From: an uncultured delta proteobacterium
GTDB taxonomy: Bacteria > Myxococcota > Myxococcia > SLRQ01
DNA length: 64,000 nucleotides
Direction: 5' to 3'
NCBI GenBank assembly: GCA_963727485.1
Contig: CAVSGM010000002.1
Span: forward strand, 1,792,001 to 1,856,000
Shown: positions 36,807 through 46,265 of the stretch, piece after piece
Numbering within the stretch: the first letter of the stretch is position 1
Layout: each line of letters opens with the position of its first letter
Notes under the pieces: model-generated
What the model was told of the DNA's origin: nothing
The model's input: the letters and a program-made list of their open reading frames with translations, nothing else
Databases searched by the model: none
Made by a program: the position numbers and the translations under genes

Positions 36807-37013
36807 GGTGCTCGCCGTCGGGCGGCGGGTGCGTCACCGTCGATGATGCGGCGACCAGGCCTCCCTCGGCACCCCTCTGAACGCGTCACGTTGGGATACG
36901 TTGGGGCGGATTGCCCCAGTGGGATACGTTGTGACGCATTCGACGGGTCGACCACCCCGCGCCGCCCGGGCACGGCTGATCGAGCCGCGAGGCGCCGTCC
37001 GCCACAGGCGCCT

Positions 37014-37878
37014 TCAGGGTCCGTCGGCGCCGGCGAGGTAGTCGGGGTAGCGCAGCTCGACGCCGAAGACCGCCTTGGCCTTGGCGTTCGTCACCCGCTT
37101 GGAGCCCAGGAGCGTCGGCGACGGGGCCTCGCTGGCCGGGGCCACCTCCGGCGCCGGGAGCCCGAGGCGCCCGGCGAGGAAGGTCGCCACCTCCCGGAGG
37201 GACGCGGGCCGGTCGTCGGCGAGGTTGTAGATCCCCGAGGCGTCGGGGTCGGCGGCGAGGGCGCGGGCGAGGGTGGCGACGATGTCGTCGACGTGGATCC
37301 GGTTGAGGAGGTTCTCGCCCCCGCCAAAGAGACGCACCCGGCCGGCGCGCAGGCGCCCCTCGAGCCCCCGGCCCCGGCCGTAGATCGCCGCCAGCCGCAG
37401 GACGATGCCGGTGGCCCCGAGGCTGCGCGCCCCCTCGAGGAACACGGTCTCCGCGTCGAGGCGGGCGGCGGCGCGATCGGGCCCGGGGTCCACGGGGCTC
37501 TCCTCGGTGACCTCGCCGCCGTCGCGCTCGGCGTAGACCCCGGTGGTGGACAGGTAGATGAGCGCCCGGGGCGCGGCGGCCGGCGACGACGTCGAGGACC
37601 GCCCGGGCCCCGGCGTCCCGGCGCGGGTCCGGGCCCACCGGGGGCACGGTGTGCACCACCACCGCCCCCTCGGGGCAGATATCGCCGAGGCCCTCCGTCT
37701 CGGGAAGTGCACACACCGCGACCTCGACGCCCCGACCGGCGAGCTCCTCGGCCCGGGCGGGATCGCGGAGGGTGCCAGAGACGGCGATCCCGTGGCCCCG
37801 GAGGGTGCGCGCCAGGTGGGCGCCCACGTGGCCGAGACCGACGACGACGACGGGCGGGGGCGCGGTGGCATCGGGCAT
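37014..37878 (-). CDS. NAD-dependent epimerase/atypical SDR (YeeZ-like), frameshift near 37600
   Basis: VVVGLGHVG Rossmann motif; YLSTTGVY, LRLAAIYG, NRIHVDDI, YNLADD. Confidence 0.85.
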
Positions 37879-38003
37879 GCAGCGTCCATAGCACGGCGCC
37901 GGGCCGGTCGCACCCGGACGCACCCGGGGCCGAAAAGTTGACCGATCCCCACCCTGGGCGACGATGGACGGGCCCGGCGACCTCCGCCGGACGAGGAGGG
38001 AAC

Positions 38004-38375
38004 ATGGACGCGATCCGAACCGAGACGGCACCCGCCTCCACCGCCGTGACCTCGACCCGCAGGGCGCCGGCGAGCGCCGAGCGCCCGCCCCGGGTCCACG
38101 CCGACCTCTCCGTCGAGGTCCGCACCCGCCAGGGCCCGGTGTTCCGCCCGGTGCGCGACCTGTCCCTCACCGGGCTCTACGTGGCCGGCCTCCGGGCGCC
38201 GGTGGGCCACGAGATCCACCTGACCCTGGCGTTCCCCGACGAGGCGCCCCTGTCCCTGCGGGGCCGGGTGGTCCGCTGCGACCCGGGGACCGACGCCGGG
38301 GTGGCCATGGTCTTCAGCCGCATCGGCTGGGACGACATGCTCACCATCGCCCGGTACCTGGCCCCCCGGATCTGA
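38004..38375 (+). CDS. Stand-alone PilZ-domain protein
   Basis: ERPPRV (RxxxR-like), RDLSLTGLYV (DxSxxG), LRGRVVR, GVAMVF. Confidence 0.85.
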   Translation: MDAIRTETAPASTAVTSTRRAPASAERPPRVHADLSVEVRTRQGPVFRPVRDLSLTGLYVAGLRAPVGHEIHLTLAFPDEAPLSLRGRVVRCDPGTDAGVAMVFSRIGWDDMLTIARYLAPRI

Positions 38376-38396
38376 GTGGGGTCATAGCCGACCCAT

Positions 38397-38426
38397 TTTA
38401 CAGTCAGACTGTGAATTCTCTACACT
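38397..38426 (+). promoter_or_regulatory. Sigma70-like promoter with an overlapping palindromic operator candidate
   Basis: TTTACA (38397-38402), 18 nt, TACACT (38421-38426); inverted repeat ACAGTC-A-GACTGT at 38400-38412; AT-rich island in very GC-rich DNA. Confidence 0.6.
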
Positions 38427-38468: not shown

Positions 38469-38909
38469 TTGACCGACGACCCCTCCGTACCCGAGAGCCC
38501 CCCCGCCGAGCCCACCTCGGGCCGGCGACGATTTCTCCGGGAGGGCGCGGGGATGCTGGCCCTCGGGGCCCTCGCCGTGGCGCCCGGCGGCCGCGACCGC
38601 GCCCTCGACGCCCTCCGGGGCCGGGTTCGCACCGTGCGCCTGGGCAGCGCCCGGCCCCACCCGGCGCCCGGTGTCAGCGCCCGGCGCGCCGGTGACGAGC
38701 TGGTGGTCTCCATCCCCGGCGCCGATCCCGGCGTCGCCCTCAACGAGACCGCCGCCCAGGTGTTCCTCGCCTGCGACGGCCGGCGCACCGTCGACGCCAT
38801 CGCCGCCTCGCTCTGTCGGCGCTACCGCGTGTCGCCGGCGCGGGCCCGCCGCGACGCGGGGGCGGTGGTCTCGGCGCTGACGCGCGCCGGGTGCCTCGTC
38901 CTCGGCTGA
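38469..38909 (+). CDS. PqqD-family RiPP recognition element (RRE) protein with a twin-arginine-like N-terminus
   Basis: LNETAAQVFLACDGRRTVDAIAASLCRRY..ARRDAGAVVSALTRAGCL is the PqqD pattern; N-terminal GRRRFLR followed by a hydrophobic stretch. Confidence 0.85.
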   Translation: MTDDPSVPESPPAEPTSGRRRFLREGAGMLALGALAVAPGGRDRALDALRGRVRTVRLGSARPHPAPGVSARRAGDELVVSIPGADPGVALNETAAQVFLACDGRRTVDAIAASLCRRYRVSPARARRDAGAVVSALTRAGCLVLG

Positions 38910-38936: not shown

Positions 38937-39147
38937 TCAGGGCCGGCTGGGGGCGCAGGGTCCCGACGGGCGAGCAGATCTGGGGGTGGCAGGCGTAGGG
39001 TCCGCAGCTCGAGGACGGCGCCGCCCGGGGGATGGGGATTTTGATCGACCGGATCCGAGGGCGGACGTACTTCTTGACCCCGTCGACGATCGCCTCCTCG
39101 GCGGCCTCCAGGGCCTCGTCCTCGATGTCGTTGCGGTCGTCGCTCAT
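38937..39147 (-). CDS. Candidate RiPP precursor peptide (~69 aa after one-base correction), CxP-repeat core
   Basis: MSDDRNDIEDEALEAAEEAIVDGVKKYVRPRIRSIKIPIPRAAPSSSCGPYACHPQICSPVG; dropping one G near 38963 gives PCAPSRP-TGA; starts 6 nt after the peptidase stop. Confidence 0.7.
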
Positions 39148-39153
39148 GGTCCG

Positions 39154-40863
39154 CTACCAGGCGGTGGACCAGGTCAGGCGCCAGCCCGCCGGGAACCGCT
39201 CGAGCCAGTACTCTACCACCTGCGTGGTCTCCCGGTCGCCCTGGTCGGCGGTGCGCAGGGCGTGGACCAGGACCTCGGGGTAGTTGCGGGTGCCGGTGGT
39301 GTAGACCGAGAGGATCCGGGTGTGGACGGTGGCGTCGGTGTCGGTCCGGCCGGTGGCGATCCGGGCCCGGGCGGCGTCGTCGAGGGCGTCGCAGTAGAAG
39401 CCGTCCATGGTCGCCCGGTAGGCCTCCGGGTCCCGGGCGTTCACCGCGGCGTCGGCGTCGTGGATCACCCGGGCGATGGCCGCGCGGTCGGCGTCGGGGA
39501 CCGGGGTGGGCGGCTGGGAGAGGTAGGGGGCCAGGGCGTCCTTCCAGGCGGCGCGGAAGGCGTCGAGGCCCTCCCCGACCACGTGCTGGAGCAGGTGGTC
39601 CATCGCCCGGGCCAGGGAGGGGCCGTCGCTGACCTGGTCGCCGAGGGTGTCGACCAGGGTCCACCCGTGCCAGGTCACCGCGGCGGCGCGCCACAGCTCC
39701 AGGAGCTTCGCCCGGCCGTAGCGGGAGACGAAGAGGCTCACGAACGAGCCGTCCCGACCGTAGTTGCGGCCATAGACGTCGCTGTCCTCGAAACCGTAGC
39801 GGTAGGTCGCGTTCTCCTCGCCGGCGACCAGGTCGTCGGCGTAGGCCTGGTGGCGGTCCCGGCCCGAGCCGTCGAGGTAGACCGCGAGCCCCTCGTCGAG
39901 AAACGGCAGGTGGTCGGTCTTCCCGTCGACGGCGGTGGCGAGGACGTGGGTGAGCTCGTGGCCGAAGTGGTGGCGCTCGTAGCTGTCGTCGCCTTGGAGG
40001 TAGAGGACGTCGACCTCGTGCTTCCAGGGGAAGGCCTGGCCCACGCTGTAGCCGTGGGCGAAGGCGGCCATGCGGTTGGGCGAGAGGACCACGGTGATCC
40101 GCGGGCGGGTGGTCAGGCCCAGGAACTCGCTGATGCGGTCGTAGGCCCGCTGGCGATCCTGGAAGATGGGGTCGAGGTCGGCGGCGGCGGCGGTGCCCGG
40201 GAGGTAGCGCAGGTCGAAGGGGCCGCGCTCGGTGTCCTGGTAGGCGACGCCCGCGTAGGTGGGGACGTCGGCGCAGAGGACCGGCGCGATCGGGCCGCCC
40301 GCGTCGCCGCCGGCGCCGGGGCCGTTGTCGTTGCCCGCGGTGCCGGGGCCGTTGTCGCTGCCCGCGGCCCCCTGGCCGTTGCCGTTGCCGTTGCCGAGGC
40401 CGCTGTCCGGGCCGGCGCCGGTGCCGCCGGTGTCGCCGTTGCCTCCGGCGGTGCCGTTGCCTCCGGCGGTGCCGTTGCCTCCGGCGGTGCCGCCCGCGCT
40501 GCCGCTGGCGCTCCCGCCCTGGTTGGCGCTTCCGTCGTCCTCGCTGCCGGTGCGCGGCCCGGCGCCCGGGACGCCGTCGAGGCCTCGAAGGTGCAGGCCC
40601 CCCGGGAGGCCCGGACGGACGGCGCGCCCAGGCCGGGTCCGCCAGCCGGGGAGGGCGCCGGGGCGGGTGGCCAGGGACGCCACCGGGACGCGCAGCGCGC
40701 TCGGCGTCGCCACCGGGCGGGTCGCCGCCGCCGGGGCGCCGCCGGCCGTCGCCGGGCTGGCGGCGGTCGTGGTCGGGGGCGCATCGGTGGGCGGCGCCGC
40801 CGGGGCGGTGCAGGCGGCGGCGAGGAGGACGAAGGCGAGGGACGGGGGGGCGAGTCGGCGCAT
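39154..40863 (-). CDS. Lipoprotein with a gluzincin (peptidase MA-like) zinc metalloprotease domain
   Basis: Lipobox LAAAC; Gly/Asn-rich linker; HELTH followed by FLDEGLAVY (HExxH + ExxA). Confidence 0.8.
   Translation of the reverse strand: MRRLAPPSLAFVLLAAACTAPAAPPTDAPPTTTAASPATAGGAPAAATRPVATPSALRVPVASLATRPGALPGWRTRPGRAVRPGLPGGLHLRGLDGVPGAGPRTGSEDDGSANQGGSASGSAGGTAGGNGTAGGNGTAGGNGDTGGTGAGPDSGLGNGNGNGQGAAGSDNGPGTAGNDNGPGAGGDAGGPIAPVLCADVPTYAGVAYQDTERGPFDLRYLPGTAAAADLDPIFQDRQRAYDRISEFLGLTTRPRITVVLSPNRMAAFAHGYSVGQAFPWKHEVDVLYLQGDDSYERHHFGHELTHVLATAVDGKTDHLPFLDEGLAVYLDGSGRDRHQAYADDLVAGEENATYRYGFEDSDVYGRNYGRDGSFVSLFVSRYGRAKLLELWRAAAVTWHGWTLVDTLGDQVSDGPSLARAMDHLLQHVVGEGLDAFRAAWKDALAPYLSQPPTPVPDADRAAIARVIHDADAAVNARDPEAYRATMDGFYCDALDDAARARIATGRTDTDATVHTRILSVYTTGTRNYPEVLVHALRTADQGDRETTQVVEYWLERFPAGWRLTWSTAW
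40435..40488. repeat. 18-bp tandem repeat x3 encoding TAGGNG in the peptidase linker
   Basis: gccgttgcctccggcggt repeated. Confidence 0.85.
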
Positions 40864-41039: not shown

Positions 41040-43302
41040 ATGGCCCGGGCTTCCCTTCCCATCCTCGGCACGGGGGCGGTGGCACCAGCGGCGCCCCGGC
41101 CCCTGCGGTTCGCCTGGCTGGAGCTGACCCACCGCTGCAACCTCCAGTGCGACCAGTGCTACACCAACAGCACTCCCCGCACGCCCCTGGGGAGCCTGCC
41201 CACCGAGCGCTGGCACCGCCTCCTCGAGGAGATCGTCGCCGCCGGGGGGAAGACGGTGCAGTTCACCGGCGGTGAGGCCACCACCCACCCGGACCTGGTC
41301 CCGCTCCTCGAGCACGCCGCCGGGCTCGGCCTCGCCGTCGAGCTGTTCACCAACGCCACCCGCCTCGACGACGCCCTGATTCGAGCGCCTCGCCACCCTC
41401 GGGGTGGCGGTGGCCACCTCGCTGCACAGCCACGAGGCGGCGGCCCACGACGCCATCACCCGGACCCCCGGGAGCCACGCCCTCACCGTCGACGCCATCC
41501 GCAGGCTGGTCGCCCGGGGGATCGAGGTCCGGGTCGCCGGGGTGCTCATGGCCGGCAACGCCGACCACGGCCCGGCCACCGAGGCCCTCATCCGGCGCCT
41601 CGGCGTCCTCACCCCGTTCAAGACCGACCCGGTGCGCCCCACCGGCCGGGGGCGCAAGGCCGAGTCCCCGGCCGAGGTGGCCAGCTGCACCGTGTGCGAC
41701 GACGGGACCTTCCAGGCGATGCACACCGATCCCGCGGGCCCGGCGCCGTCGACCTGCTGGGACGGGCGCATCGCCGTGAGCCCCCGGGGCGAGGTCTACC
41801 CCTGCATCTTCAGCCGCGGGGCGAAGGTGGGCAGCGTCGCCGACACCCCGCTCCCCCAGGTCCTCGCCCGCGGGCCCCTCGCCGGGCTCTGGGCCCTGAC
41901 CACCGACGACGTCCCCGAGTGCCGGGACTGCGACCGGAAGGGCGTGTGCTTCGACTGCCGGGCCCTGCCCCTCACCGCCCTCGGCGACGTCACCGCCAAG
42001 AACCCCCGGTGCGACTACGTGCCCCCGGCCAGGCGCCCCAGGCGCCCGCGCCCCGAGGCGGCGAGGGTGCGCCCGGGTCTCCTGGGCCGGGACCTGGCCG
42101 GCGAGCGGCTCCTGGTCGACGCCGCCACCGCCCGGCTCCACCGCCTCGACGCCGGGGCCGCGGCGATCCTCGACGCCCTGGCCGCCGGCGCGTCGGAGGC
42201 CGCCCTCGCCGCGGGCCTCACCCGGCGCTTCGGCCTCGCCCCGGACGAGGCGGCCTCGGAGATCGCCACCGTCGCCGACGGCCTCTGGGACGCGGGGCTC
42301 CTGGTGGACCCCGCGGGCCGGGACGTCACCGGGGACCGGGTCCTCGCCGGCGTCGCCCCGCCACCGGTGCCCGACGCCCTGGGCCTGGCCGCCGGCGCCG
42401 CGGACCCGGCGGCCGGGCGCGCCGTCGCGGACACCCCCGCCGCCGAGGTCCCCCGGCGCGCTCTCCTCGGCCTCCTCGGGCGCACCGTGGCCCTCGCCGC
42501 CGACGCCGCCGCCTGGGCCGAGCTCGAGGCCCTGCTGGCCCCCCTGGCCGCCGACCCCGGGGCCACCCCCGAGGCCACCATCTCGGTGGTCTCCCGCCGC
42601 TCCGCCCCCCACCTCGGGGCGCTCCACCACGTCCTGGTCGACGGCCGGCAGGTCCGGGCGGTGCGGACCCCCGGCGCCCTGCGCTCGGCGGTCGAGGAGG
42701 TGCTGTGCACCCTCGCCGCCGAGGGCCAGGGCGACCTGCGCCTCCACGCGGCGGTCCTGGTGGGCCCCGCCGGGGCGGTGCTCATCCCCGGGGCCTCTGG
42801 GGCGGGCAAGAGCCTGCTCGCCCTCGCCGGGGTCGCCGCGGGCCTCGGCTACGGCACCGACGAGGCGGCGCGGATCCCGCTGGTCGGCGAGGTGGTGGTC
42901 GACGCGCTCCCCAAGCCGGTGACCGTGAAGGCCGCGGGCCGGCCCTGGGTCCCCCCGGCGCTGACGGCCCGGTGGATCCCCCCGGACGTCGCCGACCCCG
43001 ACGACTACGCCTGGGTGCCGCTGGTCGGCAGCGCCCCGGCGCCGGTGGTGGCGGTGGTCCTCCCGGATTGCTCCGGCGCCACCGAGGGCCTCGCCCCCTG
43101 CGAGGCCGGCGACGCCGCCGAGGCCCTCCTCGCCGGGGTCTTCAACCTCGGCGGGGCGGGGGTCGCCGCGGGCCTCGAGGCGGTGTGCCGCCTGGTCGAG
43201 GGCGCGGCCTGCCTCCGCCTCGACACCCGGGACCTCCCGGCCGCCGGGGCGCGCCTCGCCGAGCGCCTCGGCCAAGGCGCGGCCCGGGGCACCGGCACCT
43301 GA
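41040..43302 (+). CDS. Radical SAM/SPASM peptide maturase fused to a PqqD/RRE domain and an HPr-kinase-like P-loop domain; frameshift at ~41380
   Basis: [86 protein letters not shown]; kinase LHAAVL..GASGAGKS..GTDE; removing one T at 41380 restores IERLATLGVAVATS. Confidence 0.88.
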
Positions 43303-43315
43303 GCTTCGCCGGGCG

Positions 43316-44943
<1,628 letters not shown>

Positions 44944-45134
44944 GGGGGCCTCCTCGGTTGCAGGTTCGGGGGCGCAAGATACACATCTGCCTGCGGTGAT
45001 CCACCCCGCGCGCGTGCCGCGGTGCGTCGCGCGGCGGCCTCGGTGGCGCGTCGCCGCGGCGGGGCCGAGGCCGCGGCCCGCGGCTTGCCGCCGGGGTCCC
45101 GGTGGCTAGAAGGGCGCCTGAGGGGGAACGCGAG

Positions 45135-46265
45135 ATGGACACGCGACGCTGGCTGGGCCTCGCTCTTTCGATCGCCACGCTGACCGCCGGCTGCGGGAAG
45201 CCCGCCGAGCTCGCGGTGGGCACCTACAATGCCGGCCTCGCCACCGGCTATGTGCCCTGGGCGGCACAGCGGGCGCCGAAGGTCGCCTCCGGGCTCGCGG
45301 CCCAGGACCTCGACGTCCTCTGCGTCCAGGAGGTGTGGTCGGCCGACGACGTCGCCCGGGTGAAGGCGGCCACCACAGACCGCTACGGCGAGGCGGTCTT
45401 CCTCGATCCGGATCCCGGGAGCGCCGCCGCCCTCGAGCCCGCGTGCACCGGCGCCGAGCTCGACCCCCTCCAGAGCTGCGCCGAGGCCAGCTGCGCCGGG
45501 GTCCCGGTGGACCAGCTCGCCGGCTGCGTCCTCGACCAGTGCGGCGTCGAGTTCGCCGCGGTCTCCCAGAGCTGCTCCACCTGCCTCGCCGCCAACATCG
45601 GCGCCAGCTTCTCGGAGATCCGCACCGCCTGCACCACCGGCGGCTCCGGCAGCTACGCCTTCGGCGGGAGCTTCGGGATCGGCCTGCTCACCGGCCTCCC
45701 GGTGCAGGCCACCAGCCACGTGGTCCTCGACTCCACCTACAACCGCCGGGCGGTGATCCACGCCCGCCTCGACGCCGGCGCCCTCGGCGAGGTCGACGTC
45801 TACTGCACCCACCTCTCGGCGATCTTCTCCAACATCCCCTACCCGGGCGAGGGGAGCTGGGAGGCGGAGCAGGGGGCGCAGATCCAGGCGATGCACGCCT
45901 TCGTCTCGCGCACCGCCGGCGCCGGCAACCCGGTGCTCGTCCTCGGCGATCTCAACTGCGGCCCGAAGGCCACCTCGGCCAGCGCCGAGGCCGAGGCGAA
46001 CTACCAGGCGGCCCTGGCCCCGGGCTACGCCGACCCCTACGCCGCCACCTCCGGGGCCACCTGCACCTTCTGCCAGGACAACCCCCTGGTGGGCGCCTCG
46101 GGGACCTCGGTGCTCATCGACCACGTCCTGGTCCGGGGCGGGCTGAAGGCGGTGGACAGCGCCCGGATGCTCACCGACGAGGTGACCTACGAGGCCGATG
46201 GCGCGACCCGGCAGACCCCCCGCTCCGATCACTACGGCCTGAAGGTGGTGCTCCAGGCGAAGTAG
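45135..46265 (+). CDS. Endonuclease/exonuclease/phosphatase-family lipoprotein with a Cys-rich insertion
   Basis: Lipobox LTAGC; TYNAGL, DVLCVQEVW, CTHL, GDLN, IDHVL, SDHYG. Confidence 0.88.
   Translation: MDTRRWLGLALSIATLTAGCGKPAELAVGTYNAGLATGYVPWAAQRAPKVASGLAAQDLDVLCVQEVWSADDVARVKAATTDRYGEAVFLDPDPGSAAALEPACTGAELDPLQSCAEASCAGVPVDQLAGCVLDQCGVEFAAVSQSCSTCLAANIGASFSEIRTACTTGGSGSYAFGGSFGIGLLTGLPVQATSHVVLDSTYNRRAVIHARLDAGALGEVDVYCTHLSAIFSNIPYPGEGSWEAEQGAQIQAMHAFVSRTAGAGNPVLVLGDLNCGPKATSASAEAEANYQAALAPGYADPYAATSGATCTFCQDNPLVGASGTSVLIDHVLVRGGLKAVDSARMLTDEVTYEADGATRQTPRSDHYGLKVVLQAK

Follow-up and report, generated by a model that had tools for sequence, protein, structure and literature searches.

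A conserved Cys-x-Pro peptide gene masked by an assembly error near a radical SAM/SPASM/RRE/HprK-like kinase fusion

Sactipeptide and ranthipeptide pathways (SkfB, 6efn; AlbA; StsB/StsC; CteB; PapB; CrpC/CrpA, as far as the available text of PMC13692751 goes) bring together a Cys-rich precursor, a radical SAM/SPASM enzyme and an RRE. The YxxP-type motif bound by RREs is not confined to one class: a sactipeptide RRE recognises it too (available parts of PMC12710340 and PMC13622209); StsC binds a W/YxxP-type motif (PMC12710340, same part), similar to the leader motif described below. Linear polyphosphorylated peptides (LPPs; LppA/K/B/S/D/N) and paeninodin-type lasso tailoring likewise involve a YxxP leader, an RRE and an HprK-like kinase whose target is a Ser close to the beginning of the core, and for LPPs the accessible portion of PMC13381572 reports that YxxP is required for RRE binding and that the HprK-like kinase phosphorylates a core Ser. 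The HPr-rel-A and SynChlorMet systems (TIGR04352/04353, TIGR04248-04251) combine PqqD with an HprK-related kinase, and SynChlorMet includes radical SAM genes. Bufferins, which are RiPP precursors with Cys residues, rely on a signal peptide to enter a general export pathway, and macrocyclic peptides are described as poor Sec substrates (both from the accessible part of PMC11626156).

Here we describe a related locus in a 64,000-nucleotide stretch of DNA (the window), in which a one-base assembly error masks a conserved 69-residue gene. Judged from its context, the encoded peptide is a likely precursor for the adjoining fusion enzyme, and the product is probably thioether-cross-linked and serine-phosphorylated.

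The peptide gene and its reading frame

In the window as assembled, an ORF of 135 aa starts at 39147 on the minus strand and extends to 38740, overlapping the PqqD gene (38469-38909) by 170 nt. The preliminary description of this DNA had reported the overlap of the two and had proposed that deletion of one base converts the ORF into a 69-aa peptide, which is corroborated by contigs of the runs X1 and X3 and by intact homologues. Residues 1-61 of the ORF comprise an acidic N-terminus, the motif Y27-x-x-P30-x-I32, a Ser run and three Cys-x-Pro (CxP) units; these three units are indeed read in the uncorrected frame, and YxxPx[IV] is kept in five intact homologues. The frame changes after Val61, and with an X at the break the neighbouring frame supplies a fourth CxP unit followed by the stop (38939-38937), giving the 69-aa product. 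The proposed distance of 27 nt to the stop of the PqqD gene holds in this translation, and the fourth unit and the Cys spacing of 5,5,6 hold both in the translation and in intact homologues.

The preliminary description had pointed to raw reads at 38955-38970 as the place to look. Our independent check of 38965 used contigs, not raw reads, from six public DNA runs (X1-X4, X6 and X8). Two contigs from different studies, both with a depth below 5, bridge the site and lack one base there: a 639-nt contig of X1 (study P1; depth 4.2; one other letter differing) and a 501-nt contig of X3 (study P3; depth 2.6; seven other letters differing). The window's version is supported by none of the six runs, with X2, X4, X6 and X8 not bridging the site. 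An extra base had thus been recognised correctly, but it aligns to 38965, the C of GTC, and not to the G run in which it had been placed; the protein is identical either way. Three runs carry a variant at 39040 that leaves the encoded peptide unchanged, and GC3 is 0.95 over codons 1-61 compared with 0.72 over the as-assembled tail. The pattern CxP-CxP-CxP with spacers of 2-3 residues occurs at five places in the six frames of the 5.55-Mb genome, of which only the window peptide fits the family profile, and the genome holds a single copy of the peptide. A word search with the peptide as a single sequence retrieved only a noisy, near-identical copy. We regard it as practically certain that the hidden 69-residue gene is real.

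Table 1. Features of the peptide locus in window coordinates
Feature	Position	Strand	Basis
Precursor peptide gene	38937..39147	-	69-aa product when the extra base is ignored
Core, Cys48/53/58/64, each Cys-x-Pro, spacing 5,5,6	38949..39006	-	Translation; spacing shared by P0008, P0011, P0014
Extra base breaking the peptide frame in the window assembly	38965..38965		Omitted in bridging contigs X1 and X3
Ser45, predicted kinase site three residues ahead of Cys48	39013..39015	-	Invariant in 6/6 window-type peptides
Y27-x-x-P30-x-I32, predicted RRE recognition motif	39052..39069	-	Conservation; role inferred from the available parts of PMC13381572 and PMC12710340
Stand-alone PqqD/RRE with N-terminal RR-x-FL and hydrophobic stretch (Tat-signal-like), putative start	38469..38909	+	PF05402 E 1.7e-12; orthologues G364, G365
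Predicted lipoprotein zinc peptidase (HELTH...E), accessory	39154..40863	-	PF13485 E 9e-5, below cut-off
Radical SAM/SPASM/RRE/HprK-like kinase fusion, split by extra base 41380	41040..43302	+	Domains; contigs; homologues P0007, P0009

The cassette in the window and its close relatives

The stand-alone PqqD/RRE (146 aa) is encoded convergently with the peptide, and its N-terminus is the same in the orthologues of the relatives G364 and G365. Two overlapping sigma-70-like sites (9 of 12) are located upstream of this gene at 38395-38426; the promoter/terminator scan of the locus found no terminators. Directly upstream of the peptide gene and in the same direction lies the peptidase gene, whose G364 orthologue overlaps the peptide start codon. 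No orthologue was found in G365-G367 with the window peptidase as query. The peptidase is absent from G365 and from the other loci, and it was rejected as a core gene.

The fusion gene is divergent from the peptide gene and encodes four domains, with the RRE C-terminal to radical SAM and SPASM and fused to the HprK-like kinase. The base at 41380 is missing in X1, X2 and X4, which joins the two halves into one ORF, and intact homologues have 736 and 744 aa (P0007 and P0009); single-base assembly errors had hidden both key genes of the cluster, peptide and fusion. Frames also look split in the genes for the epimerase and the aldehyde dehydrogenase (about 36886-38219 and 43316-45223, both on the minus strand), the aldehyde dehydrogenase of G364 being intact, and the window assembly likely carries more single-base errors. 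The fusion has the full SPASM Cys set with two auxiliary cluster motifs, PF13186 scoring above its cut-off. Its kinase part retains a His, a Walker A motif and an acidic pair, which we take to be the residues of HprK catalysis. A fold search with a model of P0007 (mean pLDDT 66, pTM 0.52, SPASM region modelled poorly) matched SkfB, BlsE and PEP carboxykinase folds, and the best solved sequence matches were SkfB, PqqE and BlsE, with TfuB1 for the RRE part. The scores of PqqE and BlsE, neither of which forms thioethers, are close to that of SkfB, so that the chemistry cannot be read from homology. All curated maturase models scored far below their cut-offs, those for AlbA, SkfB and StsB reaching 58-88 bits with P0007 and P0009 against required values of 300-850.

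A 62-aa peptide query was run against 368 genomes of the class. Besides the window itself, one clear match was obtained, in G364 (E 1.2e-6), and a match in G365 at noise level was confirmed by its context. Homologous peptides, which the preliminary description had suggested looking for near related radical SAM genes, are present at two syntenic loci. In G364 the gene order is the same (epimerase, PilZ, signal-bearing RRE, peptide, peptidase), and the 65-aa peptide has four CxP units at a spacing of 5,5,6; the fusion is on a different contig, so that adjacency is inferred from synteny. In G365 a gene for an 81-aa peptide, which has six CxP units, runs divergently to the fusion gene; a signal-bearing RRE is present and a peptidase is not. 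The same region contains an HxsC4-like second radical SAM gene after the fusion (L033:8085-9626) and a gene for a 720-aa, very Cys-rich predicted lipoprotein without a Pfam match (L033:5825-7987). Orthologues of fusion, peptide and RRE were not found in G366 (85% complete) and G367 (97%), and the site behind the syntenic PilZ gene of G366 holds other genes in place of the cassette. Within the window's bacterial family, peptide, fusion and Tat-like RRE occur together in three of five genomes and were jointly not found in the other two.

An exhaustive search yielded three more intact peptides, P0011 (5,5,6), P0012 (7,5,6) and P0014 (5,5,6), which are known as peptides alone, without readable gene context; P0013 proved to be an unrelated repeat protein and was dropped from the set. 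The five intact homologues contain four to six CxP units, three of them with the 5,5,6 spacing. A class-wide search for the RRE, with the best 10 candidates scored per genome, gave matches in 16 of 368 genomes, and among those read no twin-arginine extension was seen except in the three orthologues and a G365 paralogue. This paralogue (L118:6096-6551; N-terminus RR-x-LL) is an orphan with no peptide or radical SAM gene within 12 kb, indicating that such RREs can stand alone; its neighbours are presumably PrkA/YeaH/SpoVR-like genes.

Leader, core and export signal across the CxP family

A profile of the fusion matched 17 of 401 genomes of the phylum at 1e-30. Five of the 14 that are outside the window's bacterial family have CxP-repeat peptides beside the enzyme, and several have YxxP peptides without CxP repeats. 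With a profile made from 11 peptides, 96 clusters were found among 2801 candidates. The family spans at least 96 precursor clusters and has no Pfam or NCBIfam model, none matching the 17 peptides scanned (11 + 6); those members that carry a name are annotated as hypothetical proteins of Myxococcota. The unpublished genome G257 underlies none of the statements made here. We read seven loci from outside the window's bacterial family (G421, G350, G351, G416, G225, G345 and G255). An RRE and an HprK-like kinase are encoded at every one of them, a radical SAM gene at six and a nucleotidyltransferase (NTP_transf_5), a feature shared with LPP clusters, at two. The complete cassette is present in G345, which was retrieved with a profile excluding it. 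At the G255 locus (L085:1968-3253) a Tat-like leader, an RRE and an HprK-like kinase are found, the radical SAM gene is absent between housekeeping neighbours, and one CxP is left. This kinase-only derivative is, as a control, a single case.

In a tree of 23 radical SAM cores, from which the window's own split enzyme was left out, all enzymes of CxP loci fall into one clade (97/94) that also includes P0007 and L036, where peptides are not visible, and enzymes beside other YxxP peptides fall outside it. The window-type enzymes keep the full SPASM Cys set; five related enzymes (L040, L041, L043, L046 and L077) have a reduced auxiliary set, yet similar peptides. Short Cys peptides with a YxxP leader and without CxP repeats, next to radical SAM/SPASM enzymes of a separate clade, were observed at L042, L045, L047, L049, L050, L052 and L054. 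On a short contig, the same-clade radical SAM gene of L036:800-2739 is accompanied by a separate RRE and lies beside a PEP-CTERM-like gene. At least six radical SAM genes form a run at about 1,515,000-1,556,000 of G000:C2, where one frame near 1,555,500 contains a putative Cys/Glu/Pro/Trp repeat.

Other searches added little. A metagenome scan with the fusion alignment gave 191 pattern matches, none of which was confirmed, and a DNA-pattern scan for the last two CxP units gave nine matches, none fitting the peptide, fusion or RRE profiles. A scan of genome contigs returned two loci, one of them previously found; in the classes of G416 and G421, 1 of 22 and 1 of 18 genomes matched, with no new member. 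An ESM Atlas search with P0011 produced no usable feature match and uninformative structure rows.

The Y and P of the leader motif are invariant in 11 of 11 aligned peptides, and YxxPx[IV] is present in 94 of the 96 clusters, at a near-fixed distance from the first Cys. In the six window-type peptides the invariant residues are this Y and P, a further Pro, the first CxP units and a Ser located three residues ahead of the first Cys. The suggestion that the SSS run and the Tyr are kinase targets narrows to this one conserved Ser. The SSS run occurs in one of the six peptides, that of the window, and was rejected as a conserved multi-site target; Tyr51 recurs in one of five homologues (P0012) and the remaining Ser positions vary. 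In the other 94 family peptides, a Ser directly precedes a CxP in 88.

Across the 96 clusters, 487 of 502 Cys after the motif are part of a CxP, and 193, 104 and 80 of the 406 Cys intervals are 5, 6 and 7 residues. For 99 peptides the CxP fraction of core Cys is 0.97 compared with 0.24 in shuffles, a value inflated by the search profile, which itself selects for CxP. Pro at +2 is the sole fixed residue around the Cys in 499 units of these peptides. Asp and Glu together account for 11% at +3 and 5% at +4, Asn for 20% at +3 and Gly for 20% at +1, while aromatic residues make up 1-6% at every position. On these frequencies CxxxD, CxxQ/D and aromatic motifs were rejected as the family signature. 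Checked for acidic or amide acceptors, the window peptide has no Asp, Glu or Asn at +3/+4 and one Gln at +3.

The location of a putative export signal varies within the family. Immediately ahead of the YxxP motif, RRx[FLM][LFI] is found in 93 of the 94 other peptides but in none of the six window-type ones; the 93 also have a hydrophobic stretch behind the YxxP motif. The best 12-residue hydropathy is at least 1.42 (median 2.02) in the former and 0.13-0.66 in the latter, the two peptide sets coming from different queries. An AxA-like site is found in 63 of the 94. At the seven other loci the RRE is either plain or fused, with a plain RRE in all six enzyme-bearing loci. Each of the three readable window-type loci has an additional RRE that combines RR with a hydrophobic stretch (hydropathy 1.96-2.22), and all three stand-alone orthologues have the twin-arginine motif plus hydrophobic region. 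In most members the twin-arginine-like segment is part of the peptide, and here it belongs to the stand-alone RRE, as scored by motif consensus and hydropathy rather than by a trained predictor. Since the three window-type loci come from one bacterial family, the swap counts as one event. No profile similarity was found between the peptide leader and the RRE N-terminus, and hence no evidence that one derives from the other. The Pfam model detected TatC in five of five genomes checked; a search with TatA/TatC motif patterns had given no match. A lipobox-like Cys follows the hydrophobic stretch in 20 of 94 peptides (e.g. P0017, P0030, P0031, P0042), and some family products may be lipid-anchored.

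Proposed pathway, rival readings and known systems

Starting from the gene, its frame and motifs, the fused enzyme, the cassette and their joint occurrence, a pathway can be proposed in which the peptide is very likely the substrate of the fusion enzyme. In a first step, for which we have good confidence, the fused RRE would bind the YxxPxI motif, as in LPP and lasso systems. The radical SAM domain would then, rather likely, link the sulfur of each Cys to a carbon close by. As the residues around the Cys vary, Gly is common and only Pro is fixed, the most probable acceptor is the alpha-carbon of the backbone or the invariant Pro rather than the side chain of Asp, Glu or Asn; such variable flanking residues are compatible with a thioether from Cys-S to an alpha-carbon. 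The HprK-like domain would in a third step phosphorylate Ser45, as LppK does on S3, a step that we slightly favour. Tentatively, the Tat-like RRE could finally bind the still-attached leader and carry the product via Tat, with the lipoprotein peptidase, if present, trimming the leader. The helper RRE beside the peptide may in this way escort it out of the cell. A Tat route, with the leader in most members and the second RRE here, would fit the poor performance of macrocyclic peptides as Sec substrates, and a surface or periplasmic role would follow if export is true.

It is possible that the signal-bearing RRE is not an exporter but an uncleaved membrane anchor tethering peptide or enzyme, or a regulator or receptor, and that the product stays inside or uses a general route. 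Basic residues after the hydrophobic stretch, the lack of a clear shared cleavage site, a gene that is convergent and not co-transcribed with the peptide, and the orphan RR-bearing paralogue in G365 are consistent with such a role. However, the signal-like segment is carried by nearly all of the relatives' peptides and appears on the RRE exactly where the peptide is without one, and the three window-type loci showed no dedicated transporter gene.

Export by the RRE aside, the peptide may be the substrate while the radical SAM domain modifies Pro or the x residue (desaturation, epimerisation or a C-C link) and the Cys stay free for metal or disulfides, which we consider unlikely. Such a chemistry would agree with Pro being, apart from Cys, the one invariant position of the units, with the lack of a match to any curated thioether maturase model and with the reduced SPASM Cys set of five related enzymes, but every repeat is anchored on Cys and SkfB is, narrowly, the nearest solved relative by sequence and fold. 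An odd Cys count, found in 36 of 99 peptides, moreover misfits complete disulfide pairing and argues against disulfides alone. It is very improbable that the peptide is an unmodified small disulfide-bonded or metal-binding protein merely travelling with the cassette: modification is predicted here from gene context and no structural relative of the peptide was found, but the RRE-type motif is conserved at its near-fixed distance from the first Cys, a radical SAM neighbour is present in 9 of 10 loci read overall, and the repeats are lost where the enzyme is missing, in G255. The 135-aa ORF as a real product, or the gene as a true strain-specific pseudogene, can practically be dismissed: the bridging sequence comes from other samples and not from the window's own reads, and the noisy record P0004 likewise ends in the shifted frame, but the base is missing in both bridging contigs, the adjoining fusion gene shows the same kind of error, P0004 has further frame errors, and five homologues end soon after a last CxP.

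With a thioether-cross-linked, phosphorylated product as the preferred reading, the pathway would work like a sacti-/ranthipeptide one with LPP-type phosphorylation, and it reaches no curated family cut-off. A broader assignment is straightforward: a short ORF with a conserved leader motif and a variable core lies beside a radical SAM/SPASM enzyme and an RRE, as in RRE-dependent radical SAM RiPP systems. A further reading is rather doubtful: the family would be a RiPP class not yet described, its products cross-linked from Cys to Pro (or otherwise at Pro), bearing a phosphoserine and exported by Tat. Most members would combine export signal and RRE motif in a single leader, whereas in this lineage the four enzyme domains would have fused and the signal would have moved to a dedicated RRE carrying the folded product piggyback. 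No description of the CxP family was found in the full-text literature searched, and the available part of PMC7470986 contained nothing of relevance; subscription journals and supplements were outside this scope, so that radical SAM RiPP atlases may list it. A role of an RRE as export escort was found in no paper searched.

The 69-aa peptide and one fused enzyme provide a two-gene test system for a family with at least 96 clusters and no curated model. A cross-link tied to the invariant Pro, if true, would extend radical SAM peptide chemistry, and the swap of the signal from peptide to RRE is a direct handle on whether RREs act as export escorts.

Compared with the known systems, window-type enzymes stay far below the thresholds of the sactipeptide and ranthipeptide models, the fusion homologues falling short of the sactipeptide maturase models (AlbA, SkfB, StsB), and the RRE here follows SPASM and is joined to a kinase. 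The fusion has the full SPASM of ranthipeptide enzymes, but an acidic or amide acceptor at +3/+4 is not a regular feature of the family peptides, and neither is the aromatic residue per three-residue motif of cyclophane type. The repeats of the PapB substrate are reportedly CxxxD, in contrast to Cys-x-Pro here. Those of CrpA are CxxQ/D in the available text of PMC13692751. The window peptide has the YxxPx[LIV] leader motif of lasso peptides and LPPs, but LPPs are, in the accessible portion of PMC13381572, without a radical SAM enzyme, unlike the window cassette. No lasso cyclase, B2 protease, signal-peptidase-I-like protease or MsbA-like pump was found among the neighbouring ORFs scanned, which cover part of the flank. 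TIGR04352 reaches 38-55 bits here against a cut-off of 200, the Scm models score far below theirs, and no peptide model is matched. Bufferins have a Sec signal and MNIO, according to the accessible part of PMC11626156, whereas here the signal is Tat-like, the enzyme is a radical SAM protein and the window peptide is without a signal. Compared with all of these, the novelty lies in the fusion of four domains and in the occurrence of two signal states in a single precursor family.
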